From: Terriglobia bacterium
Lineage (GTDB): Bacteria > Acidobacteriota > Terriglobia > Bryobacterales > Bryobacteraceae
Direction of reading: 5' to 3'
NCBI GenBank assembly: GCA_963739705.1
Contig: CAVUBR010000016.1
Coordinates: forward strand, 58,964-122,963
Length of the DNA stretch: 64,000 nt
Part shown: piece by piece, positions 6,767 through 52,646 of the stretch
How positions within the stretch are numbered: position 1 is the stretch's first letter
Layout of the letters: every line of letters starts with the position of its first letter
Translations under genes and position numbers: made by a program
The notes under the pieces: model-generated
Seen by the model: the letters and a program-made list of their open reading frames with translations, nothing else
Told to the model about the DNA's origin: nothing
Databases searched by the model: none

Positions 6767-9700
6767 TTAGCGGGAAGCGACGGTGGTTCCGGCTTTTAGC
6801 GACGCAAGTTTTTCGGCCGCCGTTCGTTTCACCGTGGCGATGTTTTGCTCTTTGATTTTCTCGTACCCCCGGATCTGATCCGGCAGCGCGGCGATTTCCA
6901 GCGCTTGTGGCAAGTTGTCCGGCGTCAGGCTGGCCAGCACTTCTTCGATGAGCTGGCGATACCACGCGATCAGCGAGCGCTCCAGGCGCCGGTGCGAGGA
7001 AAGCCCGAAAATATCCAGCGGCGTTCCGCGCAGACCTTTGAAGCGCTTGAGAACGTTCAGCGGAGTCCGGAACCAGGGGCCCAGCTTGAGCTTCTTGTTA
7101 ACTCCGAAGCTGCGCAGCAGCGGCGGATGCAAGTTGTAAGAGATCGCTTCCGGCGCTTCCCACATGTCGCGCACGCGCTCGACGAACTCCGGCTTGGTCA
7201 GCAGCCGCGCCACTTCGTACTCGTCCTTGTACGCCATCAGCTTGTACAGGTACCTCGCGACCACCTCGCGCAGCGCCGGCTCCTGAATCTTATCCAGGAA
7301 CTCGACGTACGATCGCGCGTACGCCTCGTTCTGATATTCGCGCAGCTCCGCCACGCGATCGAAGCCCGCCTTAGCCTTCGTTTGCGGTTTGAGGAGCCCT
7401 TCCACCCAGGCCGCATCCTGATAATATTTGCGTCCCCACGCGAACCACTCCCGGTTGCGGTCCACCTCCACGCCGTTCCACTGGATGGCCTGCTCGATCG
7501 CCTCCGCGGAGATCGGGATCAAACCACCCTGATAGGCGATACCGGTCATGAACATGTTCACCGCCATGTGCGTGCCGAATAATCCTTCGGCGATGCGGTT
7601 GGCGTCCACGAAAATGTTGCGGCCCCGATTGGTGACGGAGTTGATCGCGTCCAGCATCTGCCCGGAACCGCTCAGCGGCATGCGATTCCTGATGGTATCG
7701 ATGGTGGGAACCAGATCGGTGTTGAGGATCGCAACCGTGCGTTCGCGGCCGGCTGTCGCCAGATTCTTCGGCTCCAGGATTCCCAGCAGATCGAAGCCTA
7801 AGATCAGATCCGCGTTGCCGGCGTTCACTTTGGCGGGCGCTTCAATCGGATGCGCGCTGACCAGCAGATGCGAGACCACCGCGCCGCCCTTCTGCGCGCT
7901 GCCGGTTTGATCGAGCGTCGCCACGTGCAGGCCGTCGATCCAGGCGGCGGTGGCCAGCAGCGCGTTAATCGTGACTACGCCCGTCCCGCCGATTCCGGGA
8001 CCGATGATGCGATAACCCTCGCCCGCCTGCACGCGATCGCGCGGCGCAGGTACCTCCGCGGCCGGCAATTGCGGCAGCGCCTTCTTCTTCAGACCGGTGC
8101 CCGGCTTCACGTCCACCGACACGAACGACGGGCAATCGCCCAGCGCGCAGCTATAGTCCTTGTTGCAGGAGGATTGATGGATGCGAATCTTCTGCCCCAG
8201 CTCGGTCATCACCGGCGTGAGGCTCATGCAATTGGCCTGCTTGACGCAATCGCCGCAGCCTTCGCAAACTTCTTCGTGAATCACCAGGCGCTTGGTGGGC
8301 TCGGCGTAGATGCCGCGCGATCGTTTGCGGCGCTTCTCGGCGGCGCATTCCTGGTCGTAGATCATGACCGTGACGCCGGGAATCTGTTCCAGCTCGCGCA
8401 GCGTGCGCGTCAATTCCTCCCGCGGCCGCAGCTCGGCATTGGAAGCCAATTCGCCTGCGTTGTTATATTTCTCGACATCCTCGGCCAGCACGACGGTCTT
8501 GCGAACGCCCTCCGCCTGCAGCTTCCGCGTCAGATCCGGAATCGGCAGCGCGCCCACCGCATTCTGCCCGCCAGTCATCGCGACGTGCCCGTTGAACAGA
8601 ATCTTATAAGTAATGTTGACCTTGGCCGCGACGCACGCCTCGATGGCCAGATAGCCGGAGTGAAACAGCGTCCCGTCGCCGAGATTCTGGAAAATGTGCT
8701 TCTGATCCACGAACGGCGTCATGCCGATCCACGGCGCGCCCTCGCCGCCCATGTGCGTGAGGAAAACAAAGCTGCGGGCCGGATCGTTCAGCCGCATCGC
8801 CATGGTGTGGCAGCCGATGCCGCCGCCCGCGATTTGCCCTTCCAGCAGCAGCGTGGACCGATTGTGCGGGCAACCGGAGCAGAACGCGGCCGGACGCGCG
8901 CCGAGGGATTTCGAACTCCCGAATGGCTGCGGCGCGGCCGCGAGCGTTCGCGGCGCCTTGTGCAGAATGTCGCACAGCGCCGTAGCGATTCTGTCCGGAT
9001 CGAGTTCGCCGGTCGGCGGAAAATGCGATTTGCCCAGAACCGCCGGCCGCGACGGAAGATCGTACAGAATCTCGCGCAGCTGCGTTTCGATGAAACTCCG
9101 CTTTTCCTCGACCACGAATATCGTTTCCAGCCCGCGCGCGAATTCCCGCGCAAACTCCGGATCGAGCGGAAACGGCATCCCAACTTTACCGATGCGCACC
9201 TCATCGCGCACGCCCAGATCGCGCAGCGCCTGCATCAGATCGAAATAGGATTTGCCGGTGCTCAGCACGCCGATGCGCGCCTCGGCCCCATTGTGCCGAT
9301 TGATGCCGTTCAGGCGCGCGAACTGGCGCGCGGCCTCCAGTCTCCGCACATTCACTTCGTGTTCCAGCCCCAGCGTGACCGGCGCCACGATGCGTGGATC
9401 GGTGTGGCGCTGGTAGCCTTCAGGCAGCCGAATGACCGGCCGCGACGGGTCCAGCTCAGCCGTTCCCCCGCCATCGCACACATCCGTGACCATCTTCATC
9501 CCCACCCAAGCCGCGCTGAAGCGCGACAACGCGATGGCCAGCAGCCCATAATCCAAAATGTCCTGCACGTTGCCGGGATACAGATACGGAATGCCGAGGT
9601 TGAACAGGCTGAAATCGCTCTGGCTGGGGATGGTGGAGCTTTTCGAAATCGGATCGTCGCCGCACAGCAGCAGCGCGCCGCCGTTCTTCGCCGAGCCCGC

Positions 9701-10078
9701 CAGGTTGGCGTGCCGGAAGATGTCGCCGCTGCGATCCACGCCCGGCCCTTTGCCGTACCAGATCCCCACCACGCCTTCCACTTTGCTCTTGCCGATGGTG
9801 TCGATGATCTGGCTGCCGAACACCGCCGTCGCGGCCAGGTCCTCATTGACGCCCGGCCGGAAATGGATGTTGTGTTCGGAAAGCAGTTTTCCCGCGCGCG
9901 CCAGCGCCATGTCGTAGCCGCCCAACGGCGAGCCTTCGTAGCCCGAAATGAACGCGCCCGTGTTGAGCCCCGCGCGCCGGTCGCGCCGCATCTGGTCGAT
10001 CGGCAGGCGCACCAGCGCCTGGATGCCGGTCAGATACACCCGGCCTTGTTCGAGCGTGAACTTGTCGGAGAGCTTCAT
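6767..10078 (-). CDS. Indolepyruvate:ferredoxin oxidoreductase family protein (fused alpha/beta, 1103 aa)
   Basis: The N-terminus MKLSDKFTLEQGRVYLTGIQALVRLPIDQMRRDRRAGLNTGAFISGYEGSPLGGYD is the hallmark of the fused IOR family. There is a TPP-binding region, and Cys clusters (CEGCGDCVKQANC...CNKDYSCALGDCPSF) indicate 4Fe-4S binding. Confidence 0.9.
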   Translation of the reverse strand: MKLSDKFTLEQGRVYLTGIQALVRLPIDQMRRDRRAGLNTGAFISGYEGSPLGGYDMALARAGKLLSEHNIHFRPGVNEDLAATAVFGSQIIDTIGKSKVEGVVGIWYGKGPGVDRSGDIFRHANLAGSAKNGGALLLCGDDPISKSSTIPSQSDFSLFNLGIPYLYPGNVQDILDYGLLAIALSRFSAAWVGMKMVTDVCDGGGTAELDPSRPVIRLPEGYQRHTDPRIVAPVTLGLEHEVNVRRLEAARQFARLNGINRHNGAEARIGVLSTGKSYFDLMQALRDLGVRDEVRIGKVGMPFPLDPEFAREFARGLETIFVVEEKRSFIETQLREILYDLPSRPAVLGKSHFPPTGELDPDRIATALCDILHKAPRTLAAAPQPFGSSKSLGARPAAFCSGCPHNRSTLLLEGQIAGGGIGCHTMAMRLNDPARSFVFLTHMGGEGAPWIGMTPFVDQKHIFQNLGDGTLFHSGYLAIEACVAAKVNITYKILFNGHVAMTGGQNAVGALPIPDLTRKLQAEGVRKTVVLAEDVEKYNNAGELASNAELRPREELTRTLRELEQIPGVTVMIYDQECAAEKRRKRSRGIYAEPTKRLVIHEEVCEGCGDCVKQANCMSLTPVMTELGQKIRIHQSSCNKDYSCALGDCPSFVSVDVKPGTGLKKKALPQLPAAEVPAPRDRVQAGEGYRIIGPGIGGTGVVTINALLATAAWIDGLHVATLDQTGSAQKGGAVVSHLLVSAHPIEAPAKVNAGNADLILGFDLLGILEPKNLATAGRERTVAILNTDLVPTIDTIRNRMPLSGSGQMLDAINSVTNRGRNIFVDANRIAEGLFGTHMAVNMFMTGIAYQGGLIPISAEAIEQAIQWNGVEVDRNREWFAWGRKYYQDAAWVEGLLKPQTKAKAGFDRVAELREYQNEAYARSYVEFLDKIQEPALREVVARYLYKLMAYKDEYEVARLLTKPEFVERVRDMWEAPEAISYNLHPPLLRSFGVNKKLKLGPWFRTPLNVLKRFKGLRGTPLDIFGLSSHRRLERSLIAWYRQLIEEVLASLTPDNLPQALEIAALPDQIRGYEKIKEQNIATVKRTAAEKLASLKAGTTVASR

Positions 10079-10231
10079 AGCGCAGGAGTGAGTATCCGAT
10101 TCATGCTAGCATGCGCTGGGCGCACCTCAGAGCCTTTGCCGGGCGTCAAACGCCAGGTAGAAAGCCCCCTTCCCCGGACCACCTCGCACTGGCATAGGAT
10201 ATGAAGTGGCAAAGCAACGAAGGGGAGGCTT

Positions 10232-10676
10232 ATGCGAAAAGTTGGATGCATTGCGATAGGTTCTATGTTCGCGCTGCTCGCCATGCTCGCGAACGCACAA
10301 GACAAACCGGACTTCAGCGGCAACTGGCAGCTCGATCCAGCCAAGTGCGAACTGCACACCAGCAAGGTGGCCGACGCCAATTGGTCCATTGAAGAGTCCG
10401 ATAACTCCATCCACGTCACGGAGAACGAGGCCGGCAAAGCCGATCGAGATGAAGTGCACCACCGACGGCAAGGATTGTGAAGTCCACGGCGACAAGGCCA
10501 AGGCATCATTCTGGTTCAACGGGCCGATGCTGGTGGAGATGGAAACCAAGGGCGACCACGTCACCCGCTACCGGCTCACGCTTTCTCAAGACGGCAAGAC
10601 GCTGAAGGTAGAAACGACTTACATCGTTCCGCAGGGCGACGCTAACGACGTTCTGGTATTCACCAAGAAACCCTAG
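10232..10676 (+). CDS. Small secreted lipocalin-like hypothetical protein (one frameshift near 10440)
   Basis: ORF 10232..10480 has a signal peptide (MRKVGCIAIGSMFALLAMLANAQ) followed by DFSGNWQLD. The protein continues in ORF 10389..10676 as IEMKCTTDGKDCEVHG...LTLSQDGKTLKVETTY. The join falls at ccggcaaagccgatcgag. Confidence 0.5.
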
Positions 10677-11275
10677 GACGCCAGTTTCCGTTCCAGCTCC
10701 GCTTTCACTTCCGGCCACTCCGAATCGATGATGCTGAAGTAAACGCTGTCCCGTACGCGCCCGCTGTCGCACACCACGTGTTTGCGGAAGATGCCTTCCT
10801 GCTTCGCGCCGAGCCGCAGAATCGCATTGCGCGACTTCTCGTTGAGCTCGTCGGTCTTCAATTCCACGCGCAAGCAGCCGAGGTATTCGAACGCGTGCCG
10901 CAGCATCAGGTACTTGGCCTCCGTATTTACGGCGCTGCGTTGCCACGGCCGCGCGATCCAGGTGGCGCCGATTTCGACGTGCCGGTTCGCGCGATCGATA
11001 TTCATGAAACGCGTGCTGCCGATTGCCCGCCCGCTCGACTGCTCGATGGTGACGAACGGCAGCGCCGTTCCCTCCGCCTGCCATTGCAGCGCCGTGCGGA
11101 CATAAGCCAGCATGTCGTCGTGCGTCCGCACTTGAACCGGGATCCAGCGCCACAGCTCTTCATCCAGACCCACTTCGGCCAGCGCGTTCACGTGTCCAAC
11201 CGTCAGCGGCTCCAGCCGGATGTGCCGCCCTCCCAGCACCACCGGAGCAATTGGCATCAAGGCCGGACTACTCAT
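10673..11275 (-). CDS. GNAT family N-acetyltransferase (RimJ/RimL-like)
   Basis: ORF 10673..11323 contains the pattern RLEPLTVGHVNAL...RFMNIDRANRHVEIGATW...QRSAVNTEAKYLMLRHAFE...RVELKTDELNEKSRNAILRLGAKQEGIFRKH. I chose ATG 11275, which forms an ATGA overlap with the stop of the upstream S9 peptidase. Confidence 0.75.
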   Translation of the reverse strand: MSSPALMPIAPVVLGGRHIRLEPLTVGHVNALAEVGLDEELWRWIPVQVRTHDDMLAYVRTALQWQAEGTALPFVTIEQSSGRAIGSTRFMNIDRANRHVEIGATWIARPWQRSAVNTEAKYLMLRHAFEYLGCLRVELKTDELNEKSRNAILRLGAKQEGIFRKHVVCDSGRVRDSVYFSIIDSEWPEVKAELERKLAS

Positions 11276-13702
11276 TCCGTTGAAACCTTGGGCGGCGCGT
11301 CCCTCACGTACTTGTCGAACCACGCCATCATTTCGTACAGCACCGTCTCGATCGTCTCCCGCGCCTGATACCCATGCGCCTCGGCCGGCAGCATCACCAG
11401 CCGCACCGTGCCGCCGTTCCCGCGAATCGCCTGGTACATTCGCTCGGATTGAATCGGAAACGTCCCGGTATTATCGTCCGCTTCGCCGTGAATCAGCAGA
11501 ATGGGCGCCTTGATCTTATCCGCCACCAGGAACGGCGACATCTTCAAATAAACATCCTGCGCCTCCCACAACTGTCCGCCGCTCGGTCTGGAATCCAAAC
11601 GGCGTCAGCGTGCGATTGTACGCCCCGCTGCGCGCGACCCCAGCGCGAAACAGGTTGGAATGCGACATCAAATTCGCCGTCATGAACGCGCCGTAGCTGT
11701 GCCCGCCCACGCCCACGCGATCGCGATCCGTCACGCCCATCTCCACCGCCTTGTCGATCGCCGCTTTTGCGTCCATCACGATCTGCTCGATATAAGTGTT
11801 GTTCACCGTCTGGGGATCGCCGATAATCGGCATGGCCGTGTCGTCCAGCACCGCATAGCCATGCAACGCGAAGAACAGCTCGGATGGTCCGGCAATGCTG
11901 GTGAAGCGCTGCACTGAGCCGCTGATCTGCCCGGCCGTCTCGGCGTCGTTGTATTCGAGCGGGTACGCCCACACCACCGTCGGCAGCCGCGTGCCCTGTT
12001 TGTAACCGGGCGGCAAGTACAAAGTGAACGACAGCGGCACGCCATCCTGCCGCTTGTAAGTGACTTTCTGTTTGGTGATGCCCTGTAGCATCGGCGTCGG
12101 ATCCGGGAAATGTGTCAGCGCCCGCTCGGACCCGCCCGCGCCCAGCACGCGCACGAAATAATTGGGCGGCGTGGTCTGGTTCTCGCGCACCGTAAGGATC
12201 TTCGATGCGGCGCCGTCCGCGAGCGCCACGAAATTCTCGTAACTGGTCGCGCTCGAATGAAAAATGCGCTCCGTTTTGCCGGTCTCCAGATTCATGCGAT
12301 CCAGAAACGGCCGGTCGCCTTCCGGACTCGCGCCCGGGCCGGTCAAATAAATGGCATTGCCAACCTGCGCCACCACGTCTTGTCCGGTCGGCAATGTCCG
12401 CAGTACCATCGTGCCGGGGCTATGATAGCGATCCTGCACATTGACGCCCCACAGCAGCTTCGGCGCCACGCCCGCGCGCTCGGAATCGATCAGAAACATG
12501 CGCTGCCAGCGCCGATTGCGTTCGTAATCCTGCACGAACGCCCCGCGCTCCTCGGCGAACTCGATTCCGCGAAAGCGCTCTTCGGTCCTGAAAATTTCAT
12601 CCGGCGTTGCCTGGAACGGCGCCTTCAGCATCACAATGCGGTCGCGATGCGGAACCTTCTCGTTCGGATTCCCGCCGTCCAGCGCCTCGGCCCAAACCAG
12701 CGTGGCGGGCTGATTGGGCCGCCATCGGTAATCTCGCGGCCCTGTGGGAACGCCCTGAATCGGCACGCGGTCTTCCAGCGGCAGGCTCGCAACCTTGTAC
12801 ACCACGCTGCCTGCGGCGTTCCACACCTCGACATCCTTGGGAAAATCCTCCACGGGATGCAGATAGGAAAACGGCCGATGCACGCGCGCCACGAGCAGAT
12901 GCTCCCCGTCCGGCGCCGGATCCACTGTCAGAAAAATCGCCGGCTTCCCGCGCGCCTCCACGCGCCCGCTCGCTGTATCCACCGTCGCCAATTGCGCCGT
13001 CGCGTAGTAATCGAACAGGTCTTCATCGTGCGCGTTGTTCAGCATGTCTTCGTAGGTACGAACCGGCCCGGTGTGCCCGGCGCTCTCCTGCGTGTGAACA
13101 CCAGTGGGAATCACGGGCTCCGTAGGAGCCGCGCCGCGCCCGGACGGAACGGTCTGGACCAGCAGCCTGCGGCTGTCCGGCATCCATTGGAGAATAGGGT
13201 CGCGCCGATTCCCGAACCCCGCCCCTTCCATAGCCGCGTTCACGCGCACGCCATCGATTCTGCGCGCGCGCCCGCTGGCGACGTCGCCAACCCACAACTC
13301 GATCGCGGTCTCGGTAGTATTCGTGAAAGCGAACTGCTTTCCATCCGGACTCCAGCGCGGCGTCGAAGTCTTAGCACCGGCCGGCAACTGGATCTTCACC
13401 TGCGACCCATCGTCGATCCGAACCAGAACCATGGAAGTATCCAGGTTGGCCCGATGCGGCCCGTTGTTTTTGGGATTGATTCGCAACCCGGCCAGCCGCA
13501 GCATCGGCTGCCCCACCACGGCAATGGGCGGATAGCGCAACGGCTCAACCAGCAGCAGGTGCGTGCGCGCCGGACTGACGATGGCGCGCGGCGTCGCCGG
13601 TGCATTCAACACATCGAGAATTTCCCGCGGCGGCTTCTGATAAGGCTCATCGGCGAGCAGCAGCGCGGCGAAACAAATCAACAACAGGCGGATGCGCATC
13701 AT
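11272..13702 (-). CDS. S9 (prolyl oligopeptidase family) serine peptidase with N-terminal beta-propeller (one frameshift near 11575)
   Basis: ORF 11516..13702 has a signal peptide and the nucleophile elbow GGHSYGAFMT. The catalytic Asp and His (LLIHGEADDN, PAEAHGY) lie in ORF 11272..11598. The join reads ...GFQTERR / QLWEAQDVYLKMSPF. Confidence 0.85.
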
Positions 13703-26176: not shown

Positions 26177-26706
26177 AACATTCTCTATTACTTCTGTTGT
26201 TTATCTCTCCGCTGGCGTTGGCCCAGCCTTTGAAGCTCGACAGCCTCGATAAGCTCGCCTCCAAGGCGACCGAGACCGTCAAGGTCACTCTGGACAACAA
26301 GCTCTTAGGCCTGGCCTCCCGCTTTCTCTCCAATGACGATCCCGACGAAGCCCAGGTCAAACAGCTGGTCAAGGGTCTCAAAGGCATCTACGTCCGCAGC
26401 TTCGAATTTTCCAATACCGGCCAATACGCCGACTCCGACCTCGACGCCATCCGCAAACAACTGCACGATGCAAGCTGGAAGCCGATCGTCGAAGTGCACA
26501 CCAAGGACGAGAACGACAACACCGACGTCTACGTCAAGGACGAAGGCGACCACTTCGCCGGCATCGCGATCGTCTCCGCCGAGCCGAAAGAATTGACCGT
26601 GGTCCACATCGACGGAGTAATCGACCTGGATGGCCTGTCGAAGCTGGCGGGCAACTTCGGCATCCCCGACGACATTCGCTCCAAGACCGAAAGGAAGCAC
26701 AAATGA
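26173..26706 (+). CDS. DUF4252 domain protein
   Basis: ATGA overlap with the previous gene and a signal peptide. The protein reads ...LDSLDKLASKATETVKVTLDNKLLGLASRFL...VKGLKGIYVRSFEF...FAGIAIVSAEPKELTVVHIDGVIDLDGLSKL, the usual partner of ECF/anti-sigma pairs. Confidence 0.75.
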   Translation: MKHSLLLLLFISPLALAQPLKLDSLDKLASKATETVKVTLDNKLLGLASRFLSNDDPDEAQVKQLVKGLKGIYVRSFEFSNTGQYADSDLDAIRKQLHDASWKPIVEVHTKDENDNTDVYVKDEGDHFAGIAIVSAEPKELTVVHIDGVIDLDGLSKLAGNFGIPDDIRSKTERKHK

Positions 26707-42981: not shown

Positions 42982-44170
42982 ATGATTGGACAGGTGAGCT
43001 ACCGGCCAGGCAGACATTTTCTCCAGATACCGGGACCGACGAACGTGCCGGATCGCGTTTTACGCGCCATCGATCACGCCACCATCGATCATCGGAGCTC
43101 CGATTTTGCGGAATTGGGCGAGAGCGTGTCTGGATGGAATGAAATCGATTTTTCAGACGCAAGGGCCGGTGGTTATTTTTCCGTCGTCGGGTACTGGGGC
43201 GTGGGAAGCGGCGCTGGTGAACACGCTGAGCGCCGGCGACAAGGTGCTCGCATTTGAAACGGGGCACTTCGCTACGCTTTGGACGAAGATGGCCCGGAAC
43301 CTGGGACTGAGTGTGGACGTGATTCCCGGCGATTGGCGTCACGGCGCGGACCCGGCGCGTTTGGAGGAACGGCTGAAAGCCGACTCGGCGCATGAGATCC
43401 AGGCGGTGATGGTGGTCCACAACGAGACTTCGACGGGGACTACCAGTAACATTCCTGCGGTTCGGCGCGCGATCGACGCTGCGCGGCATCCGGCGCTGCT
43501 GTTGGTGGATACGATCTCGTCGCTGGCGTGTATGGAGTACCGGCACGAGGAGTGGGGCGTGGATGTGACGGTGGGTGGGTCGCAAAAAGGTCTCATGCTG
43601 CCGCCTGGACTCGGTTTCAACGCGATCAGCGCGAAGGCGATGGAAGCGGGCAAGAAGTCGCGCTTGCCGAAGAGCTTCTTTCAGTGGGGCGAGATGTTGG
43701 AGGCCAATGCGAAGGGATTTTTTCCGTACACGCCTTCGACGAACTTGCTGTATGGCCTGCGGGAAGCGCTCCGCATGCTGGAGGAAGAGGGGCTCGAGAA
43801 CGTTTTCAAGCGCCATGCACGTTTAGCCGAGGCGACGCGAAGGGCTGCCCGCGCCTGGGGGCTGGAGATGGTGGCGCTCAATTGCGCTGAATACAGCAAC
43901 TCGTTGACGGCGCTCTTTGTGCCGGAGGGATTCAACGAGGCCACGGTGCGTGCGCTGATTCTGGAGCGGTTCAACATGTCGCTGGGCGCAGGGCTCGGTA
44001 AGCTGGCCGGGCGCGCTTTTCGCATCGGCCATCTGGGCGACTTCAATGAGCTGATGCTGGCGGGCACGCTGGCCGGGGTCGAGATGGGGCTGGAATTGGC
44101 CGGAATCCCGCATGGCAAGGGCGGCGTGGACGCGGCGCTCGACTACTTGTTGGAGCAGGCCAGAGCGTGA
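42982..44170 (+). CDS. Class V aminotransferase (serine/alanine--glyoxylate aminotransferase family), one frameshift near 43128
   Basis: The N-terminus MIGQVSYRPGRHFLQIPGPTNVPDRVLRAIDHATIDHRSSDFAELGESV (in ORF 42766..43257) joins LDGMKSIFQTQGPVVIFPSSGTGAWEAAL in ORF 43106..44170. PLP lysine context: VTVGGSQKGLMLPPG. Confidence 0.85.
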
Positions 44171-44177
44171 CTCGCAA

Positions 44178-44867
44178 TCACCGTGGCGCGCGGCGGAATG
44201 GCAGCCACATCAGGAAAAAGAGAGCCAGCGCCACCAACTCGCCGGCCGCGATGTACCACGGCCAAGGTCCCAGATAGTTCAACAACGAAACATTGGCGGG
44301 CTTTTCGCGGAGGTACATGTAATTGGTTTTGAAAAGCCAGTCGAACACGCCGACGGCGGCGGCGTACAGGTTCGCCGTCCGAAATGCTGTCCAGACGCTG
44401 TTGGGGCGCGGCCGGAGCAAGCGGCCCCAAGTCAACGTCAGAATCGTAACGATGACGAAGCCGTGCGCCAGAAAAAAGTAGATGGTCGGATAGGACGGGA
44501 AGGGCGCCCACAGGTCGGGCGTCAGCACCGCCATGCTGCTTCCGGCCACGCCGGCGTAGTAGGCCAGTTCATAGCACCAGGGCTGAAGCCACAGCGCCGC
44601 GATGATGGTAAGCCACAGGGTGAAATCGCAAAGTTGCAGGGGCAGGCCTTCGGGGAAGCGAAAGCCTTCGTGCTGATAGCGGTAGAAATACCAGATGAGT
44701 TCGTTGACCAGAAGGAACAAACCCAGGCTGCGGCGAATCCAGAGGCTGGCTAAACGGCTTCTGCGGCAGAGTGCCGACAGAACCAGAGCGATCAGAGGGA
44801 TGGCAGCGATGATCGCGAGATGCGCCGGCCCGAACAGTTGGAATCCGGGCACAGCGAAGAGGAGCAT
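44178..44867 (-). CDS. TIGR02206/YwaF-like integral membrane protein
   Basis: 229 aa with 6-7 TM helices and an [11 protein letters not shown] motif. Its ATG shares one base with the TAA of the upstream gene (TAATG). Confidence 0.55.
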
Positions 44868-46006
44868 TAATAGCGAAACACGGCCGCGATTGCGGCGCCA
44901 TCCGGCATTTTAGCGGCTGGCAGGCTGAAAGCTAAGCCGCGCTGTCGCAGGGTTTCGATGGCGGCACGGTTGAGCGGATCTTCGTCGCCCCGGTCTACGC
45001 GCGCGTCCTGATTGATATAGAGCCAGCCCACACGGCCGTCGGCGGCAGCGTGGAGGATGGTGTCCAAGTCTGTTGAGAAGCGTGCCGGCGCCATCCGTTC
45101 CTTGGATTCCATGAGACCCGCGGCAGCGTGCTCGGTCGCATCGGATCGAACAATGGCATAGGCTCGCTTCAGCAATTCGTCCTCGGAGAACGGCGAGTTG
45201 GCGCCCCCGTGGATGCTCTCCTTGAGCAAGTGCGGGTAACCGCTGAGGGAGCGATAGATGGCGGTATCCTCATCAACGCCCGCCAGGACCAGGGGTGCGT
45301 CGCCGGCGTGGAGCAGTTCGCGAATGCCGCGGTCGACGGCCTTGAAAAAGTCCGCCACGTACGTGTGAGCGGTCTCGCGTCCCGAACCGGTTCCGAAACG
45401 CACGCCGCGCATGGACCCGGTGGAGCTGCCGGCGGTGGAGCGATTCTCGAGGTCGTGATCGGGCGGTTTGAAGGCCAGGGCCTCGTCGAGTGTTCGGGGC
45501 ACGCCCTTAGGCAGCTCGACGCGGTGCGCACGCAGGCCGGCATAGCGCCATAGCTCCACCGATTTCTGCGACAAGCGCAGCAGATAGAACTCGGCAGGCA
45601 GGTGCAGATCCACGAGCACGGGCCGTACCTGGAAACAGCCGGCCACGGTGAGCGAGGGTTTCAGCGGCTCGATCCCGTCCAGGATGGTAAAAACTTCCGG
45701 GGAGCGAAAGATAGCGTGGCCCCAGTGGGATCCAGCCTCGAATTCAGGAGCATCGGTCAGCCGGAGTAACGGCTCGATTAAGTCGGTTACCTCGGGCTGG
45801 GCGATCGAGCGCGCCTTAAGCTGCCGTTGGACATCCTGACAGTAGGTTCGTAACATCGTGCCCATGGACTTGGCCTGTTCTCCGGGCCGGTAAGGCGGCA
45901 GCAGGATGGTAACGCAGGGCGCGGCAGAGCCGGCCAGCTCCCCGATTTTTTCGGGGCGCAGGGTCTCTAACGTCGGAACATTCAAGCCGGTCATAGAGTC
46001 CTCCAT
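44867..46006 (-). CDS. eRF1-like 'baeRF' family protein (bacterial archaeo-eukaryotic release-factor-like), function unknown
   Basis: Start taken at ATG 46006 (or 45994). The tracked ORF extends to 46096. The layout matches what I recall of baeRF proteins: [34 protein letters not shown], then [18 protein letters not shown]...[54 protein letters not shown]...[16 protein letters not shown] and [15 protein letters not shown]. Not verified by any search. Confidence 0.5.
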
Positions 46007-46268
46007 CCAGGACTGCTGGCACGCATCCAACCAATTGCGGGAAGGCCAACATATTACGGTTGTTCGGGCGCGAAGTGGTTGGTTGGGAGCTTTCACGCAC
46101 CCTCGCTATGGGGAAAACGGCGCGGGGCTTCTCGGCGATCGGCAGAGCCGCCAACAGATTGAACGGTATGCTCTTCTGGTACCGCTCGTGCGGGTGACTA
46201 GGTGGTCCAGAATAGTAGTCCGGAGACGTCTTGTGTCTCAGGGATGACGGACCGGAAGAAGGCGCAAG

Positions 46269-46940
46269 ATGGGCGACAAAGAACTGCGAGAAGCGGTCGA
46301 GCAAGCGCTCGATTGGGAACCGATCGTTGACGCCAAGGGTATTGGGGTGTCGGTCGCGGATGGGGTTGTGACGTTGAGCGGACACGTTCCGACTTATGCC
46401 GAGAAACGAGAAGCTGAGAAGGTGGCGGGCTTGGTGCGGGGGGTCAAGGCAGTGGCTTGCGAGCTGGAGGTGGCACTACCGGTCTCTTTCGAGCGAAGCG
46501 ATGAGGAAATCGCGCGGGCGGCTGCCAACGCCGTTGCTTGGAATACGCTGTTGCCGAAGGACGCCATCCAAGTGTGGGTGGACAAAGGGCGCGTGACGCT
46601 GGAAGGCGCGGTGGATTGGCAGTATCAACGGAGGGGGGCCGGAAAGAGCGTGCGGTATCTGGCGGGCGTCCGAGACGTGAATAATCACATCTTGGTTCGG
46701 CCGCGGGCCGATCAGGTCGCCGTGAAGGCGCAGATTGAAGCTGCGCTGCTACGCAACGCGCAGTTGGACGCCAACCGGATCCGTGTCGATATTCGTGGAG
46801 GCCGCGTCATTCTGAGCGGCACAGTGCAATCCTGGCTGGAGCGGGAAGCGGCCGAACAGGCGGCCTGGGGTGCGCCGGGCGTATGTGACGTCGAGAATCT
46901 GCTCATTGTGAACCCGGTGGCGAGCCTGGTGGCGTATTAG
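46269..46940 (+). CDS. BON-domain protein (three BON repeats, OsmY-like)
   Basis: The pattern ...I.V.V.DG.VTLSG.V....E...AE.....V.GV..V.N.L.V recurs three times (GIGVSVADGVVTLSGHVPTY, IQVWVDKGRVTLEGAVDWQ, IRVDIRGGRVILSGTVQSW). Confidence 0.85.
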   Translation: MGDKELREAVEQALDWEPIVDAKGIGVSVADGVVTLSGHVPTYAEKREAEKVAGLVRGVKAVACELEVALPVSFERSDEEIARAAANAVAWNTLLPKDAIQVWVDKGRVTLEGAVDWQYQRRGAGKSVRYLAGVRDVNNHILVRPRADQVAVKAQIEAALLRNAQLDANRIRVDIRGGRVILSGTVQSWLEREAAEQAAWGAPGVCDVENLLIVNPVASLVAY

Positions 46941-46975
46941 CGCGGCTTGGCCGGCTGGGAAGGAGGGAGGGACGA

Positions 46976-47848
46976 ATGATCCGGTTCCAGAGAATCCTGT
47001 TTCCAGTTGATTTTTCCGAGCAGTGCGTGGCCATCGTGCCGGCTGTGAAGGCCATGGCCAGCCAATTTGGCGCGCGGCTCGAGGTGCTGCACGTGGTGGA
47101 CTTGCCTGCGGCCTGGTTTGGGTCGCCCGAGGCCGCCGCTTGGGCAGCGCTGATCAGCGCTGAACGGCTGCGGGAGGAAGGCCAGATCGCTCTGGATCGT
47201 TTCATTGCGAAGCATTTCGGGAATTTTCCCGTGACCGCGGTGGTGGACGAAGGCGAAGCGGGGCGCGAGATCGCCGATTACGCGCAGGACAAGCATACGG
47301 ACCTCATCATGATGCCGACCCATGGTTATGGTCCGTTCCGAGCGTTTTTATTGGGGTCCATCACTGCCAAGGTGTTGCATGACGCGCATTGTCCGGTTTG
47401 GACCGGAGTGCATGCCGAAGAGCTGACGGCGCATCCTCCGCAGCGCTGGAAGCACCTGCTGTGCGCGATCGACACGGATCCGCGGGACGCCGCGGTGCTC
47501 AAGTGGGCGGCGGAGTTTGCGGCTGGGCGAGGCTTGGAGGTGCGGCTGGTGCACGCCGTTGAGGGAGTGGACGGAACGTTGACGAAAGAACGCGACCCGA
47601 GTATGTACGAGTTCCTGTTCAACGTGGCGCGCGAGCGGATCGCGGCGACGCAGTCCCAGGCGGGAACGCATTTTGAAGTCTGTTTTCTGGGAGGCAAGGT
47701 GGGCCGCGCGATACACCAGGCGGCTATCAGCCACGACGCCGATCTCGTAGTGATCGGGCGCGGTGTGATGCAACACAAGCTCGGGCGTCTGCGCAGCAGT
47801 GCCGTTTCCGTTATCCGACAAGCGCCCTGCCCGGTGATCAGCATTTAG
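46976..47848 (+). CDS. Universal stress protein, tandem Usp domains
   Basis: Two Usp modules: RILFPVDFSEQC...DLIMMPTHGYGPFRAFLLGSITAKVLHDAHCPVW and HLLCAIDTDPRD...DLVVIGRGVMQHKLGRLRSSAVSVIRQAPCPV. Confidence 0.85.
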   Translation: MIRFQRILFPVDFSEQCVAIVPAVKAMASQFGARLEVLHVVDLPAAWFGSPEAAAWAALISAERLREEGQIALDRFIAKHFGNFPVTAVVDEGEAGREIADYAQDKHTDLIMMPTHGYGPFRAFLLGSITAKVLHDAHCPVWTGVHAEELTAHPPQRWKHLLCAIDTDPRDAAVLKWAAEFAAGRGLEVRLVHAVEGVDGTLTKERDPSMYEFLFNVARERIAATQSQAGTHFEVCFLGGKVGRAIHQAAISHDADLVVIGRGVMQHKLGRLRSSAVSVIRQAPCPVISI

Positions 47849-47878
47849 GCCAGGGTCTAGCTTTGCGGAGCGTGTGAG

Positions 47879-48739
47879 ATGACGTTGAACACGCAAGTCG
47901 CGATGCGATTGGATGAAGTGGCCGGCTTGCTGCTGGAGCAAGGCGCGAGTCCTTTCCGTGTGCAGGCCTACCGGCGGGGCGCGGAAACCGTGCGGCGGCT
48001 GGAGCGCCCCGTTTCTGAAATCTTCGAGCAGGAGGGGGTGGAAGGCCTGCGCAAGCTGCCGGGCATCGGCGATCGCCTGGCTATCGCGATTCGCGACATT
48101 GTGCGCTTGGGGCGTCTTCCGATGCTGGATCGGCTGCGCGGGGAGTCCGACGTGGTGGAATTGCTGCGAACGGTTCCCGGTATCGGGCCGGTGCATGCGC
48201 AGCGGCTGCACGACGATCTGGGCGTCGATTCGCTCGAAGATCTGGAAGCGGCGGCGCACGACGGGAGGCTGGTCAACGTCGCGGGGCTGGGGCACAAGCG
48301 CGTGGCCGGCATTATGGATTCGCTGGCTACGCGGCTGGGCCGGCTGCGGGCGCTGAGCGCGGAGGCCGAGGAGCAGGTCCCGGTTGAAGAAATGCTGGAC
48401 GTTGACCGGGAATATCGCGAGCGCGCGGAATCAGGCGAACTGCACAAGATTGCGCCGCGGCGCTTCAATCCCACCGGTGATGCCTGGCTGCCGATTCTGC
48501 ATACGCAGCGTGGGGACCGTCACTACACGGCACTGTTTTCGAACACGGCTCGCGCGCACAAGCTCGGTAAGACCGGAGATTGGGTGATCCTTTATTACGA
48601 CGGGCGCGGGGGCGAGCGGCAGGCCACGGTGATCACCAGCCAGTACGGAGGTTTGAAGGGCCAGCGAATCGTACGCGGGCGGGAAGAGGAATGCGCGCGG
48701 TATTACGGTGCGGCGCTGGGCCATGCGTCGGGAATCTAG
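47879..48739 (+). CDS. PolX-like helix-hairpin-helix protein lacking polymerase palm/thumb and PHP domains
   Basis: The N-terminus matches the PolX 8-kDa and fingers region: VAMRLDEVAGLLLEQGASPFRVQAYRRGAETV...LPGIGDRLAIAIRDI...LRTVPGIGPVHAQRLHDDLGVDSLEDLEAAAHDGRLVNVAGLGHKRVAGI. The protein then ends after a roughly 110-aa unrelated tail (…RHYTALFSNTARAHKLGKTGDWVILYY…). Confidence 0.55.
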   Translation: MTLNTQVAMRLDEVAGLLLEQGASPFRVQAYRRGAETVRRLERPVSEIFEQEGVEGLRKLPGIGDRLAIAIRDIVRLGRLPMLDRLRGESDVVELLRTVPGIGPVHAQRLHDDLGVDSLEDLEAAAHDGRLVNVAGLGHKRVAGIMDSLATRLGRLRALSAEAEEQVPVEEMLDVDREYRERAESGELHKIAPRRFNPTGDAWLPILHTQRGDRHYTALFSNTARAHKLGKTGDWVILYYDGRGGERQATVITSQYGGLKGQRIVRGREEECARYYGAALGHASGI

Positions 48740-48750
48740 AGAGGTGCAAC

Positions 48751-50094
48751 ATGAACACTACGGAGACGATGCTCCTCGATCTGGTGCGGGATGCGGCGCA
48801 CCCTTTGACCGGGTCGGCGCAAGATTACGATCCGCTGTTGGAGCTGATCGGCGACGCGCGCTTCGTTTTGCTCGGCGAGGCGACGCACGGCACGCACGAG
48901 TTTTATCGGGAGCGCGCGCAGATCACCAAGCGGCTGATTCGCGAGAAAGGATTTACCGCGGTCGCGGTGGAGGCGGATTGGCCGGACGCGTATCGCATTA
49001 ACCGCTTCGTGCGCGGCCAAGGCGAGGATGAGGATGCGGCGGACGCGCTCAGCGGATTCCGGCGTTTTCCGGCCTGGATGTGGCGCAATGCCGACGTTCT
49101 GGATTTCATCGGGTGGATGCGCGCGCATAACGAGGCGCTAGCCGCGCGGCAACTTCAAGCAGGGTTTTACGGACTCGATTTGTACAGCATGCACGCCTCC
49201 ATCCAAGCTGTGCTGGAGTACCTGGACAAGGTAGATCCGGAAGGAGCGCGGCGGGCGCGGCATCGCTACGCGTGTTTTGAAAACTTCGGCGAAGATCCGC
49301 AGGAGTACGGCTATGCGGCCGGGCTGGGATTGAGCGGCACATGCGAGCGCGAGGTGATCGAGCAACTGATCGACTTGCAGCGGCGCGCCACCGATTACGC
49401 TCGCCGCGATGGGCGGATCGCGGCCGACGATTTCTTCTACGCCGAGCAGAACGCGCGGCTGGTCAGGAATGCGGAAGAATACTACCGCGCGATGTTTCGC
49501 GGGCGCATCTCATCCTGGAATCTGCGCGATCGTCACATGGCCGAGACGCTGGACGCGCTGGCCGGGCACCTGAGCCGACATGATCAGCACGCCAAGATCG
49601 TGCTGTGGGCGCACAACTCGCACCTGGGGGACGCGCGAGCGACGCAGATGGGCCGCCGCGGCGAGCTAAACGTCGGGCAACTGGTGCGGGCACGCTATGG
49701 AAGCGAGTGCGTGCTGATCGGATTCACTACCTACAGTGGAACGGTGACGGCGGCGTCCGAATGGGGTGGTCAAGCGGAGCGCAAGCGTGTCCGTCCGGCG
49801 GTGGCGGAGAGCTACGAAGCCATGTTCCATGCAGTGGGCGCCCCGCGATTCCTGCTGGGGCTTCGCGATGGCGGGCAGGTTTCGCATGGGCTCGCGGAGC
49901 CGATGCTTGAGCGCGCCATCGGCGTAATCTACTTGCCGGAGTCCGAACTATCTAGCCACTATTTCTACGCCAGCCTGGCGCGGCAGTTCGACGCCATCCT
50001 GCATTTCGATCAAACCCGCGCGGTCGAGCCGCTGGAACGCACGTCCGAGTGGACCATCGGCGAGCCGGCCGAAACCTTCCCATCCGGAATGTAG
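48751..50094 (+). CDS. Erythromycin esterase / ChaN-like family protein
   Basis: Start at ATG 48751 (MNTTETML). Motifs: ARFVLLGEATHGTHEFYRERAQITKRLIREKGFTAVAVEADWPDA, FPAWMWRN, LWAHNSHLGDA. Confidence 0.85.
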   Translation: MNTTETMLLDLVRDAAHPLTGSAQDYDPLLELIGDARFVLLGEATHGTHEFYRERAQITKRLIREKGFTAVAVEADWPDAYRINRFVRGQGEDEDAADALSGFRRFPAWMWRNADVLDFIGWMRAHNEALAARQLQAGFYGLDLYSMHASIQAVLEYLDKVDPEGARRARHRYACFENFGEDPQEYGYAAGLGLSGTCEREVIEQLIDLQRRATDYARRDGRIAADDFFYAEQNARLVRNAEEYYRAMFRGRISSWNLRDRHMAETLDALAGHLSRHDQHAKIVLWAHNSHLGDARATQMGRRGELNVGQLVRARYGSECVLIGFTTYSGTVTAASEWGGQAERKRVRPAVAESYEAMFHAVGAPRFLLGLRDGGQVSHGLAEPMLERAIGVIYLPESELSSHYFYASLARQFDAILHFDQTRAVEPLERTSEWTIGEPAETFPSGM

Positions 50095-50162
50095 TCCACA
50101 ATCTCGTTCCTGAAGCGCGATCTGTTAATTTCACAAGGAGGGCTGTCCTCAGGAAGACGGGG

Positions 50163-52646
50163 ATGATTTGGCGTATCCGTTCACTTGCTGGGAGCTGCTG
50201 CGCCTTGTCCGTATTGGCGGCCTTTCCGCTGTGGGCCGATGTTACCTTGACGGGCCGGGTAGTGGACGAAAACGAAGTGCCGGTTCCCGGTGCGCACGTG
50301 AGCGTGGTTCCAGCGCCCGGTTCCCCGATTCCCGCCCCCGCGAAGCCTTGGGACACGCAAACTGATCCGACCGGAGCCTTCACGCTCAGTCTTCCAGCGG
50401 CAGGCGATTTTCTGGTCAGCGTCGAACTCGAAGGTTACTATGCGCTGAAGGATCGCCCCGTGCGGGTGCAGGGGACGCAGGAGATGACGCTGACGTTGAA
50501 CACGGTCCGCGAGGTTTTCCAATCCACCGATGTGAACGCCGAAACCTCGCCGGTGGACGTCGGCCAGACGCAGAACCAGGAACATTTGACAGGCACGGAA
50601 GTGAACGACATCCCGTACGCCAATAGCCACAGTTTGCGAAACGCGATGACGCTGATGCCGGGCGTGCTGGAGGATGCGACCGGCGCTTTTCACATTGAGG
50701 GGTCGTCGGAGAATCAGGTTCTGTTCCTGCTCAACGGCTTCAACATCACGGATCCGATTTCAGGCGATTTCCGCACGGCGCTGGCGGTGGAAGGCATCCG
50801 TTCGGTGGATCTCACCACCGCGCGGATTTCGCCGCAGTACGGCGCCGGGTCGGCCGGAGTTCTGGCCCTCAATACCGAGAACGGTACGGACGCGTTCCAC
50901 TATACGGCGACGGACTTTATTCCCGGTTTGAAGCTGCAGCAAGGCCTGCGCCTAGGCAATTGGTATCCGCGCGTGGGTTTCTCCGGGCCGATCGTGCGCG
51001 GGCGGTCTTGGTTTTCCGACACCCTCGATTCCGGATACGACCAGTCGATCGTAACGGACTTGCCGCGCGGGCAGAACACACGCAGCGGCTGGTCAGTCAG
51101 CAACCTGTTGCACACGCAGACCAACTTGACGCCATCCAATATCCTGTTCACTGACTTCCTGGCATACGTGGATCGCGAAGGGCACGTGGGATTGGGACCG
51201 CTGAACCCGATACCGACTACTCCGGACGTGCACACACGCGAGTTTTTCGGGAGCATCAAGGACCAGACCTACTTCGGCCACACGCTGGTCGAATTGGGGT
51301 ATTCGCACAACGACTTCCTGGATACTCAAACTCCGCTGGGCCAGAGCTTATACGTCATTTCGCCGCAGGGCGCGAGCGGCAATTATTTCGTCGATTCCAC
51401 GCAGTCGGCTGCGCGCGATCAGGGCCTGGCGGATGCCTACCTGCCGCGTTTCGAATTTGCGGGCTCGCATCAAATCCAGCTTGGCGGAGACGTCGAATGG
51501 CTGCACTATAGTGGCGACTTCCACCGCACCGGTTACGAAGTTCTGGGGCTCACGGGCCAGTTGCTGTCCCAGACAGTGTTCGGCCCTCCCGCGCTGTTTC
51601 ATGCGCGGGATGTGGCGACGTCATCCTATCTGCTCGATACGTGGCGCGTCTCGAAGAGCTTGCAATTCGAGGTTGGGTTTCGCGAGGACCTGGATCATCG
51701 CGCCACCGACGTGGCCTGGTCGCCGCGCGCGGCGTTTTCGTGGTCGCCGTTTGCGTCCGGCCACACGCGGGTTTCCGGAGGCTATGCGATCAGTCATGAT
51801 GCGGTGACCATGGATATGCTGGGCCGCCCGCTGGATCAGACGGCGCTTACCAGCACCCCCAGCACGCCGTTCTTCGCAGCGGCCACCACTTTCGCGGTGG
51901 GCGGCTTCCAATTACCGCGCGCCACCAATTGGAATCTGAACGTGGACCAGCAAATCACGCCGCACACTTTTTTGACAGCGAAATACTTGCGGCGGCGTGG
52001 AACCGACGGCTTCGCGTTCGTGAACACGCTGGCTCCGGAAGGCCCGGCCTCGCTGCTGCCGTTACCCAATGCCACATCCGCGGGCGTCTACCAGCTCGAA
52101 AATCTGCGCCGGGACGACTACGACTCGGTGCAGATTTCGGTGCGGCAGACTCTGTCCGGCCAGCACGAATGGATGGCAAGCTACACGCGCTCGCGCGCGC
52201 TCTCCAACGCGGTTCTCGATCCGAGCACATCCCTACCGTTGCAGGTTGTGACGAATCTTGTTCCGATGCCCTGGGACGCGCCGAATCGTTTCTTGGGATG
52301 GACCTATCTGGGGCTGCCGTGGAAGAACTGGTCCATCGCCGCGCTGGCCGACCTTCGCAGCGGCTATCCGTTTTCGATCCGGGACCAGACCGGACTGGTT
52401 TCGGGCGCGGTGGATTCGCACCGTTATCCGATGAATCTGGATCTGAACATCGCCCTCGAGCGCATGATCACGCTGGCGGGATACCGGTTTGCGCTACGCG
52501 GGGGGATGGACAATGTCACCAATCAAGCCAATCCCACCGCGGTGAACAACGTGATCGGCGCGCCGCAGTTCCTGCAGTTCCTGGGCGATGAAGGGCGGCA
52601 TTTTGTGGTGCGCGTCCGCTTCTTCGGCCGCGCTGGAACCAAGTAA
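50163..52646 (+). CDS. TonB-dependent receptor-like outer-membrane protein with N-terminal CarboxypepD_reg domain
   Basis: Start at ATG 50163 (MIWRIRSLAGSCCALSVLAAFPLWA). The region LTGRVVDENEVPVPGAHVSV is followed by a plug-like region (NSHSLRNAMTLMPGV, GSSENQVLFLLNGFNITD). The beta-barrel ends ...RHFVVRVRFFGRAGTK. Confidence 0.8.
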   Translation: MIWRIRSLAGSCCALSVLAAFPLWADVTLTGRVVDENEVPVPGAHVSVVPAPGSPIPAPAKPWDTQTDPTGAFTLSLPAAGDFLVSVELEGYYALKDRPVRVQGTQEMTLTLNTVREVFQSTDVNAETSPVDVGQTQNQEHLTGTEVNDIPYANSHSLRNAMTLMPGVLEDATGAFHIEGSSENQVLFLLNGFNITDPISGDFRTALAVEGIRSVDLTTARISPQYGAGSAGVLALNTENGTDAFHYTATDFIPGLKLQQGLRLGNWYPRVGFSGPIVRGRSWFSDTLDSGYDQSIVTDLPRGQNTRSGWSVSNLLHTQTNLTPSNILFTDFLAYVDREGHVGLGPLNPIPTTPDVHTREFFGSIKDQTYFGHTLVELGYSHNDFLDTQTPLGQSLYVISPQGASGNYFVDSTQSAARDQGLADAYLPRFEFAGSHQIQLGGDVEWLHYSGDFHRTGYEVLGLTGQLLSQTVFGPPALFHARDVATSSYLLDTWRVSKSLQFEVGFREDLDHRATDVAWSPRAAFSWSPFASGHTRVSGGYAISHDAVTMDMLGRPLDQTALTSTPSTPFFAAATTFAVGGFQLPRATNWNLNVDQQITPHTFLTAKYLRRRGTDGFAFVNTLAPEGPASLLPLPNATSAGVYQLENLRRDDYDSVQISVRQTLSGQHEWMASYTRSRALSNAVLDPSTSLPLQVVTNLVPMPWDAPNRFLGWTYLGLPWKNWSIAALADLRSGYPFSIRDQTGLVSGAVDSHRYPMNLDLNIALERMITLAGYRFALRGGMDNVTNQANPTAVNNVIGAPQFLQFLGDEGRHFVVRVRFFGRAGTK

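Follow-up and report, generated by a model that had tools for sequence, protein, structure and literature searches.

A 64-kb stretch of DNA from a Terriglobia bacterium of the Bryobacteraceae (contig CAVUBR010000016.1; hereafter the window, with positions counted from its first letter) carries six open reading frames (ORFs) between positions 44178 and 50094. We found that the protein encoded by one of them, at 44867–45994 on the minus strand, belongs to the Balon family of hibernation factors (Pfam baeRF_family3) as a remote member (16–18% identity), and that the surroundings of its gene are a further example of the Balon-type stress cluster already described for Balon. Our analysis established the family membership of the protein, its fold, the lack of catalytic motifs and a non-random linkage of its gene to genes for Usp and BON proteins. 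Judged by homology, its likeliest mechanism is occupancy of the ribosomal A site, by which it would silence and protect ribosomes in stress, and we assign this reading a probability of about 0.78. The locus had been introduced in a preliminary description as a candidate uncharacterised system, a label now superseded, as both the family and the cluster type are on record.

Balon was recognized as a ribosome hibernation factor by cryo-electron microscopy and genetics (Helena-Bueno et al., Nature 2024; PMC10901736). The hibernation role was shown for the Psychrobacter urativorans protein (AOC03_06830) and for the mycobacterial homologues Rv2629 and Msmeg1130, and homologues occur in approximately 20% of representative bacteria (PMC10901736). 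Their genes typically lie in stress operons together with those for RaiA, Hsp20, OsmY/OsmC, HdeD, RtcB and MarC/EmrB (PMC10901736). In the published Balon work that we consulted, main texts and supplements, no mention of Acidobacteriota was found. Burroughs and Aravind (2019; PMC6514570) had defined the baeRF-1 clade computationally and predicted its members to be non-catalytic A-site blockers that act in translational shutdown, with a link to hibernation.

Profile searches assigned the protein to PF18845 (baeRF_family3) with 105.2 bits (cut-off 31.5). Its sole match in NCBIfam was NF052287, the 'AOC03_06830 family ribosome hibernation factor' (72 bits, E 6e-20, residues 27–334). A single-sequence search of PDB sequences returned only Balon (8rd8, 8rdv and 8rdw) at E < 0.01, the other match being noise with an E-value of 0.57, and a profile built from 40 homologues likewise picked only Balon out of 177,635 PDB sequences (E 9e-17), with a match spanning residues 12–142 and 176–369 of the 369-residue chain. 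The 40-homologue alignment was also used to build an AlphaFold model (pLDDT 81.4, pTM 0.77). In a Foldseek comparison of this model with the PDB, ranks 1 to 6 were all ribosome-bound Balons (8rdv, 8rd8, 8rdw, 8v9j, 8v9l and 8v9k; E 2e-20 to 5e-13, TM 0.61–0.67), three of them from P. urativorans and three mycobacterial (Msmeg1130, Rv2629), followed by aRF1, eRF1 and Pelota with TM values of 0.2–0.4. According to the model, the protein has the eRF1-like three-domain fold and belongs to the aeRF1 superfamily (baeRF). The earlier call of an eRF1-like protein of the baeRF type is thereby borne out by both Pfam profile and structure prediction, while the accompanying statement that no baeRF family has a shown activity is outdated, since the activity of Balon was demonstrated in 2024. 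When we rebuilt a Balon reference sequence from the 8rd8_B PDB alignment, filling the part left unaligned with 33 X, its best Pfam family was PF18845 as well (94 bits, model positions 1–167 of 168). Thus, baeRF family 3 includes the experimentally characterized Balon.

The length of the protein, 375 aa, fits the range of 360–420 aa reported for Balon homologues. A string search found neither NIKS nor GGQ in its sequence. A GGQ-like loop, and with it peptidyl-tRNA hydrolysis, had been expected from the preliminary description; the equivalent position reads GSGR and is aligned with GSDR of Balon. Balon's HP motif ('REHP'), which contacts the decoding centre (PMC10901736), aligns with R40–P41 of the Balon-like protein (numbered from the start at 46006). 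P41 is invariant among the aligned homologues; the position before it is occupied by R in the window protein, as in the majority of homologues, and by H in a few of them (for example P0030 and P0115). PF18845, the three-domain fold, the absence of GGQ and NIKS, the proline of the HP position and the GS[GD]R sequence are features in common between the window protein and Balon, and so is a stress-gene setting which includes BON/OsmY-type and Hsp20 genes.

Several observations weigh against equating the two proteins. Identity to the experimentally studied Balons amounts to 13–18%, the 72 bits obtained with NF052287 do not reach its equivalog cut-off of 330, and the H of the HP motif is replaced by R. 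Furthermore, a stretch of 13 residues found in the C-terminal domain of most homologues is missing from the protein. This segment (alignment columns 366–378, consensus approximately FGVFxGxxRGGRxxW) is also absent in the closest relatives P0001 and P0004, and is perhaps the two-strand insert of the Pelota-like domain noted by Burroughs and Aravind. Finally, RaiA/HPF, the commonest Balon neighbour in the literature, was found by phmmer neither in the window nor within 10 kb of the gene in any of the 78 related loci described below, using one approximate Escherichia coli HPF query; this is a weak probe, so that absence of HPF is not proven. Because identity is low and the equivalog cut-off was missed, functional equivalence to Balon is something we only infer, and to judge from its sequence it is homologous to the Psychrobacter protein without being its equivalog.

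The Balon-like gene is part of the following arrangement, in which the promoter elements were scored with a position weight matrix (PWM):

44867–45994, minus strand: Balon-family (Pfam baeRF_family3) gene, 375 aa; predicted ribosome hibernation factor acting at the A site
44178–44867, minus strand: integral membrane protein of the TMEM164/TIGR02206 type (PF14808, 158 bits; TIGR02206, 157.5 bits)
46000–46004, minus strand: Shine–Dalgarno sequence GGAGG of the Balon-like gene, 5 nt 5′ of the ATG at 45994, as read from the sequence
46015–46035, minus strand: predicted sigma-54-type promoter of the Balon-like gene, ATTGGTTGGATGCGTGCCAGC (PWM 18.1 bits)
46175–46195, plus strand: predicted second sigma-54-type −24/−12 element, TCTGGTACCGCTCGTGCGGGT (PWM 11.9 bits), facing the BON–Usp–HhH–Ere arm
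46269–46940, plus strand: triple-BON protein, 223 aa (PF04972, 172 bits in three stretches)
46976–47848, plus strand: tandem-Usp protein, 290 aa (PF00582, 160 bits in two stretches)
47879–48739, plus strand: HhH protein, 286 aa (HHH_8 and HHH_5, the N-terminal region of PolX)
48751–50094, plus strand: Ere-like protein, 447 aa (Erythro_esteras, PF05139; 462 bits, full model, E 2e-138)

All six ORFs are intact and on the strands given before, and their domain calls (baeRF, TMEM164, three BON, two Usp, HhH without polymerase, Ere) were confirmed by Pfam and NCBIfam as first proposed. The close packing noted before is real as well: at 44867 the sequence TAATG joins the TAA of the Balon-like gene to the overlapping ATG of the TMEM164-like gene, and the intergenic gaps of the plus arm measure 35, 30 and 11 nt. 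Only the start of the Balon-like gene, which had been placed at 46006, had to be corrected. The ATG at 46006 overlaps the Shine–Dalgarno sequence, whose position is kept across the aligned upstream regions, and the ATG located four codons further 3′ serves as the start in 39 of 39 aligned homologues (invariant M5). The start is therefore 45994, which yields a protein of 375 aa and a divergent spacer of 274 bp instead of 262 bp.

To describe the gene neighbourhood, one genome per GTDB species was scanned, which yielded 78 loci, mostly from Bryobacterales. The homologues, too, point to a member of the Bryobacteraceae or Terriglobia (Acidobacteriota) as the source of the window. Their six-frame ORFs were searched with the window proteins and, additionally, all neighbouring ORFs were subjected to unbiased clustering. 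A Usp gene within 3 kb of the baeRF gene was the most frequent neighbour (36 of 78 loci) and occurred in several arrangements, followed by BON with 21 loci within 3 kb and 33 loci by clustering. The density of Usp genes was 22.6 per 100 kb at up to 1.5 kb from the baeRF gene compared with 1.6–1.9 at a distance of 3–7.5 kb, and the corresponding values for BON were 8.8 and 1.0–1.9. Since both densities drop steeply away from the baeRF gene, the clustering exceeds chance, and the view of Usp and BON as functional partners of the baeRF gene is well supported. Unbiased clustering added Hsp20 (12 loci), CBS (9) and GroEL (8) to the genes found near baeRF genes. The description of the locus as a conserved stress-type cluster stands.

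The remaining members were found less often. HhH genes lay within 3 kb of the baeRF gene in 11 of 78 loci (11–17 overall) and Ere-like genes in 5 (5–7 overall). TMEM164 genes did so in 8 loci and were located directly 3′ of the baeRF gene in 8 of the 78 species loci and in L006. The baeRF gene and its partners are arranged in several independent ways. In the commonest arrangement, Usp follows directly 3′ on the same strand as the baeRF gene; in others, TMEM164 is inserted between the baeRF gene and the downstream Usp gene, a BON–Usp arm with or without HhH and Ere-like genes diverges from it, or HhH is convergent and immediately 3′ of it (L022, L024, L025, L049). Distant homologues with 51–62% identity have kept Usp, often BON and sometimes TMEM164 in the same overlapping position, and are devoid of HhH and Ere-like genes. 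Close relatives (85–90% identity) are syntenic including unrelated flanking genes for an aminotransferase, an FAD oxidase and an outer-membrane protein, and are for this reason little informative. The complete set is restricted to L007–L009, L016 and L056, with L012 and L072 having it minus TMEM164. The assumption that the six genes constitute a single co-conserved unit is not supported; only Usp and BON are broadly linked.

Some loci show peculiarities of their own. In L072 and L056 (approximately 5900–11200) the cluster contains many frameshift-split ORFs, probably owing to errors in long-read assembly. The bin of L072 is labelled 'Acidimicrobiales', yet identity to the window, which is of Bryobacteraceae origin, reaches 78% in the best BON segment and 82% in the best HhH segment of this locus; this suggests mis-binning or recent transfer. 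A pair of genes for an APH-type kinase and an APS-kinase/AAA_33-like protein lies a few kilobases 3′ of the baeRF gene in L004 (11506–13198) and L006 (10794–12405), whose baeRF proteins are just 51–62% identical to the Balon-like protein.

The question arises whether the functional module comprises no more than the Balon-like, Usp and BON genes, with the HhH, Ere-like and TMEM164-like genes being mere neighbours by descent within one Bryobacteraceae subclade. The narrow distribution of the full set, the low counts for Ere-like and TMEM164 genes and the synteny of unrelated flanking genes in the closest relatives all fit this explanation. On the other hand, HhH occurs in the second, independent, convergent arrangement and, in unrelated metagenome loci (for example L086 and L087), beside genes for HPF, BON, Usp, Ere-like proteins, RtcB or GroEL; the position of TMEM164 directly after the baeRF gene is kept at 51% identity (L006); and the gaps of 11–35 nt speak for the plus arm being co-transcribed. 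Taken as a whole, we consider a module restricted to the Balon-like, Usp and BON genes quite possible, at somewhat worse than even odds. HhH, which occurs in two arrangements, is a moderately supported partner of the baeRF gene; for the Ere-like and TMEM164-like genes the association is limited to a subclade.

The HhH protein was characterized further. Its family is very large and highly conserved, with 7,891 matches at E < 1e-5, the best 120 of which are all at least 65% identical to it. Residues 3–150 match Thermus thermophilus PolX (3b0x, E 1e-26) in the 8-kDa and fingers region. The Pfam scan detected no palm, thumb or PHP domain, and the PDB profile match ends at residue 150; without these domains the protein cannot be a polymerase. 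Bacterial PolX thus shares the HhH modules of the 8-kDa and fingers regions with residues 1–150 of the HhH protein but has a palm, a thumb and usually a PHP domain, in place of which the HhH protein carries, at its C-terminus, a conserved domain some 115 residues long. This domain (residues ~165–280) is strongly conserved and of helix-plus-beta type, and in the AlphaFold model (pLDDT 77.5) residues ~169–276 are predicted to form a helix followed by six strands. Searches for its affiliation by Pfam, NCBIfam, PDB profile and Foldseek, the latter with the whole model, returned only the N-terminal part of PolX.

Partners of HhH within 3 kb were counted in 44 metagenome loci whose flanks measured 2.5 kb or more: BON (12 loci), Usp (8), GroEL (8), HPF (4), Ere-like (3) and baeRF (3). 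The HhH gene accompanies HPF in L086, L087, L154, L160 and L161 and adjoins Hsp20 in L085. The metagenome locus L086 (2592–8567) encodes in one direction an Ere-like protein, a full-length PolX, BON, HhH, HPF, here a Ribosomal_S30AE domain fused to a cold-shock domain (CSD), and Usp, and thereby resembles the partner set of the window with HPF replacing the Balon-like gene. In L087 (3649–7419), genes for archease, a fragmented RtcB and HPF are followed by HhH fused to a phosphatase-like domain. The fusion protein (P0232, 472 aa), encoded directly after the HPF gene, carries a phosphatase-like domain of the BLH/PTP type. HhH thus turns up repeatedly in clusters related to stress and hibernation. 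A role as regular companion of hibernation factors, Balon-like as well as HPF, looks new and is put forward as a prediction; the protein might bind rRNA ends or the ribosome, not DNA.

The divergent spacer was aligned for the window and 15 loci with baeRF proteins of 40–90% identity. Two conserved, promoter-like islands, one on each side, stand out from divergent sequence, in accordance with the earlier idea of a shared control region. The island 5′ of the baeRF gene reads TGG-N8-CGTGC, its GG and GC being 10 nt apart as in the −24/−12 geometry of sigma-54 promoters. In the ATTGGTTGGATGCGTGCCAGC element GG is located at 46032–46031 and GC at 46020–46019, 24 nt from the ATG, while in the TCTGGTACCGCTCGTGCGGGT element GG (46178–46179) and GC (46190–46191) precede the BON ATG by 77 nt as counted from GC. 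A BON-side block with GG-N10-GC spacing was present in 11 of the 16 aligned divergent spacers. For 76 loci with an alignable N-terminus we recorded the presence of an NGG-N7-NGTGC or TTGC element at 20–32 nt 5′ of the start, which was found in about half of them compared with approximately four expected by chance. The −12 half alternates among loci between GTGC and canonical TTGC, and near-consensus sites occur in L061 (TGGCACACAGTGTGCAT) and L044 (TGGCAGCCGGTTTGC).

When the PWM, built from these sites, was run over the 64-kb window, the element of the Balon-like gene was the best match and that of the plus arm the fifth. The second-best match, CTTGGATGGAGGCGTGCATGC with 16.5 bits, lies antisense inside the Ere-like gene (49187–49207, minus strand) and could be a chance site or an antisense promoter; matches at 12759–12779 and 26466–26486 are intragenic or antisense and were judged to be chance. 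In related loci, PWM sites were also located 5′ of further genes for Usp (10) and BON (6), and matches of at least 12 bits numbered 190 compared with about 95 in shuffled sequence. A scan of 44000–50400 for sigma-70 promoters and terminators gave counts at shuffle expectation and was uninformative. As a separate observation, a near-canonical sigma-54-type element (e.g. AGTGGCAGACCGCGTGCACGT) precedes extra tandem-Usp gene pairs about 2–6 kb 5′ of the baeRF gene in L023, L026, L028, L029, L032, L035, L043 and L047, which suggests a larger Usp-rich regulon in Bryobacterales.

Some of these data speak against sigma-54 control. The PWM scores are partly circular because the training sites were pre-selected for GG and GC, although the positional and cross-gene evidence is independent of this pre-selection. 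The −24 half on the BON side is usually CGG instead of TGG. Furthermore, a GAFTGA scan detected no enhancer-binding protein in the window, and the 7 of 84 loci which have one within 10 kb show none that is consistently adjacent; the occurrence of GAFTGA-type ORFs in some loci does indicate that these genomes carry sigma-54-dependent activators. The TGG-N8-CGTGC blocks might instead be operators of a stress regulator or another type of promoter. This would explain the missing adjacent activator, a −12 half that is mostly GTGC and not canonical TTGC, a −24 half that lacks canonical CAC in many loci, and the short predicted leader of about 10–17 nt. It would leave aside that the invariant features, GG and GC 10 nt apart, are the hallmarks of sigma-54 promoters, that the −12 half alternates with canonical TTGC up to the near-consensus sites of L061 and L044, that the elements keep a constant position with respect to the start codon, and that the same geometry recurs 5′ of separate Usp and BON genes. 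We consider such an operator or other promoter type unlikely, though clearly not negligible.

Sigma-54-type control of a Balon-like gene, shared with Usp and BON genes, looks new; no literature tying Balon to RpoN or sigma-54 was found, and we offer this control as a prediction. The suggestion that the whole locus forms one regulon can be retained as a prediction in the sense that sigma-54-type elements are predicted for both arms; co-conservation of all six genes is not supported. Taken jointly, the Balon-like, BON and Usp genes of Bryobacterales could represent a sigma-54-dependent hibernation or dormancy regulon governed by an unlinked enhancer-binding protein, with HhH as an unrecognized hibernation accessory. 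As a combined claim this is tentative, and we would not expect it to hold in all its parts.

With regard to the mechanism, the region that replaces GGQ deserves attention. A loop of about 30 residues (180–208) just before the long middle-domain helix is modelled with pLDDT < 50 and is positioned where the lasso loop of Balon would be expected. In Balon, the lasso loop around A2602 and the bL27 trap are among the defining features, and the loop is poorly ordered without P-site tRNA (PMC10901736). Unlike in Balon, the loop at the GGQ position has a signature of its own, PDHDLxNRS...RFGTGSGRE, which is invariant within the window clade. A Gln nearby (consensus GRETQ) is not conserved, being replaced by A in the Balon-like protein and its close relatives. 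That the protein is a rescue factor or another catalytic aeRF1 relative (eRF1, Pelota or Vms1-like) which releases or rescues stalled peptidyl-tRNA, and not a hibernation factor, a possibility raised in the preliminary description, is very improbable: the aeRF1-like fold, the strong conservation of the loop (F204, G205, T206 and E211 invariant), unlike in baeRF families 1, 2 and 6, and a Gln 2–3 residues after GSGR in most homologues would be in line with such a role, but there is no GGQ, the aligned position is GSG-R here and GSD-R in Balon, the nearby Gln is variable, the best sequence and structural matches are the non-catalytic Balons and not eRF1 or Pelota, and Balon leaves the peptidyl-transferase centre inert (PMC10901736).

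For hibernation by A-site occupancy, the sequence of events might be as follows. Under growth-arresting stress the two divergent arms would be switched on together from the two sigma-54-type promoters by an enhancer-binding protein encoded elsewhere. The Balon-like protein would then enter the ribosomal A site, probably delivered by EF-Tu and irrespective of the presence of mRNA. Given such binding, the loop with the conserved R/H-P motif (R40–P41) would touch the decoding centre, and the loop in place of GGQ, which is long, invariant and probably flexible, would reach the edge of the peptidyl-transferase centre, so that ribosomes would be held inactive and protected with no peptide released. 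Usp and BON genes would be co-regulated and belong to a general module for dormancy and stress, the HhH protein would be an accessory that recurs in clusters of the hibernation and stress type, and the Ere-like and TMEM164-like genes would be lineage-specific additions.

The other products of the cluster can be described as follows. The TMEM164-like protein is annotated as an acyltransferase by NCBIfam. Inspection of the N-terminus of the BON protein revealed no signal or transmembrane segment there, and this protein resembles OsmY only weakly (71 bits with a cut-off of 174). The canonical ATP motif G-x2-G-x9-G-[ST] is present in neither Usp domain, domain 1 reading PTHG-x9-GS and domain 2 being degenerate; because of this, nucleotide binding, which had been attributed to the Usp protein, should not be assumed. 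We rejected an identification of the Ere-like protein as a resistance enzyme of the EreB, EreA or EreD type (62.7, 28.6 and 25.9 bits, with cut-offs of 750–800); on sequence grounds its membership is limited to the broad PF05139 family. The PADLOC-DB 2.0 defence models matched none of the six proteins at E-values up to 1e-3, which is consistent with the previous statement that the locus is not a known defence system.

Elsewhere the window codes for unrelated products, among them ThrRS, a glycosyltransferase, HlyD/MacB-type efflux components, a PAS histidine kinase, a KdpD-like protein and a TonB-type outer-membrane protein. A gene for a CarboxypepD_reg/Plug/beta-barrel outer-membrane protein (50166–52646) is located on the same strand 3′ of the plus arm. 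In L004 (3435–5942), where the HhH and Ere-like genes are absent, the outer-membrane gene directly follows BON–Usp. It may be co-transcribed with the plus arm or merely syntenic.

Comparison with known systems places the cluster among Balon-type loci and also reveals differences. In contrast to the published Balon operons, the preferred partners here are tandem-Usp, BON and HhH, without RaiA/HPF beside the 78 loci (weak query) and with a predicted sigma-54-type promoter. Members of the baeRF-1 clade (PMC6514570) resemble the window protein in having the full three domains and no catalytic Gln; they differ by linkage to HPF and by poor conservation of the catalytic loop (families 1, 2 and 6), whereas the loop is invariant in the window clade and HPF is not adjacent as far as the weak query tells.

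A parallel to the co-occurrence with Usp exists in Mycobacterium tuberculosis. Block 8 of the DosR regulon (Rv2623–Rv2631) is co-regulated and holds both the Usp protein Rv2623, a tandem Usp, and the Balon homologue Rv2629, and also Rv2626c, a CBS protein. The alpha-crystallin HspX belongs to the DosR regulon as well. As in this block, Balon homologue and Usp are found together in the Bryobacterales loci, in which Usp, CBS and Hsp20 recur. The block as listed is without BON, HhH, Ere-like and TMEM164 genes, however, and DosR is a response regulator acting at sigma-70-type promoters in a different phylum, whereas a sigma-54 promoter is predicted for Bryobacterales.

If confirmed, the sigma-54-type element common to the Balon-like, Usp and BON genes would provide a testable regulatory input, and the conserved HhH protein recurring beside both Balon-like and HPF factors would add to what is known about Balon; neither lead would alter the basic picture of this factor. 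Since the eRF1-like gene belongs to the Balon family, genes annotated as 'hypothetical protein' in metagenome-assembled genomes of Bryobacteraceae and other Acidobacteriota can now be read as probable hibernation factors, which is relevant to the persistence of slow-growing soil bacteria.

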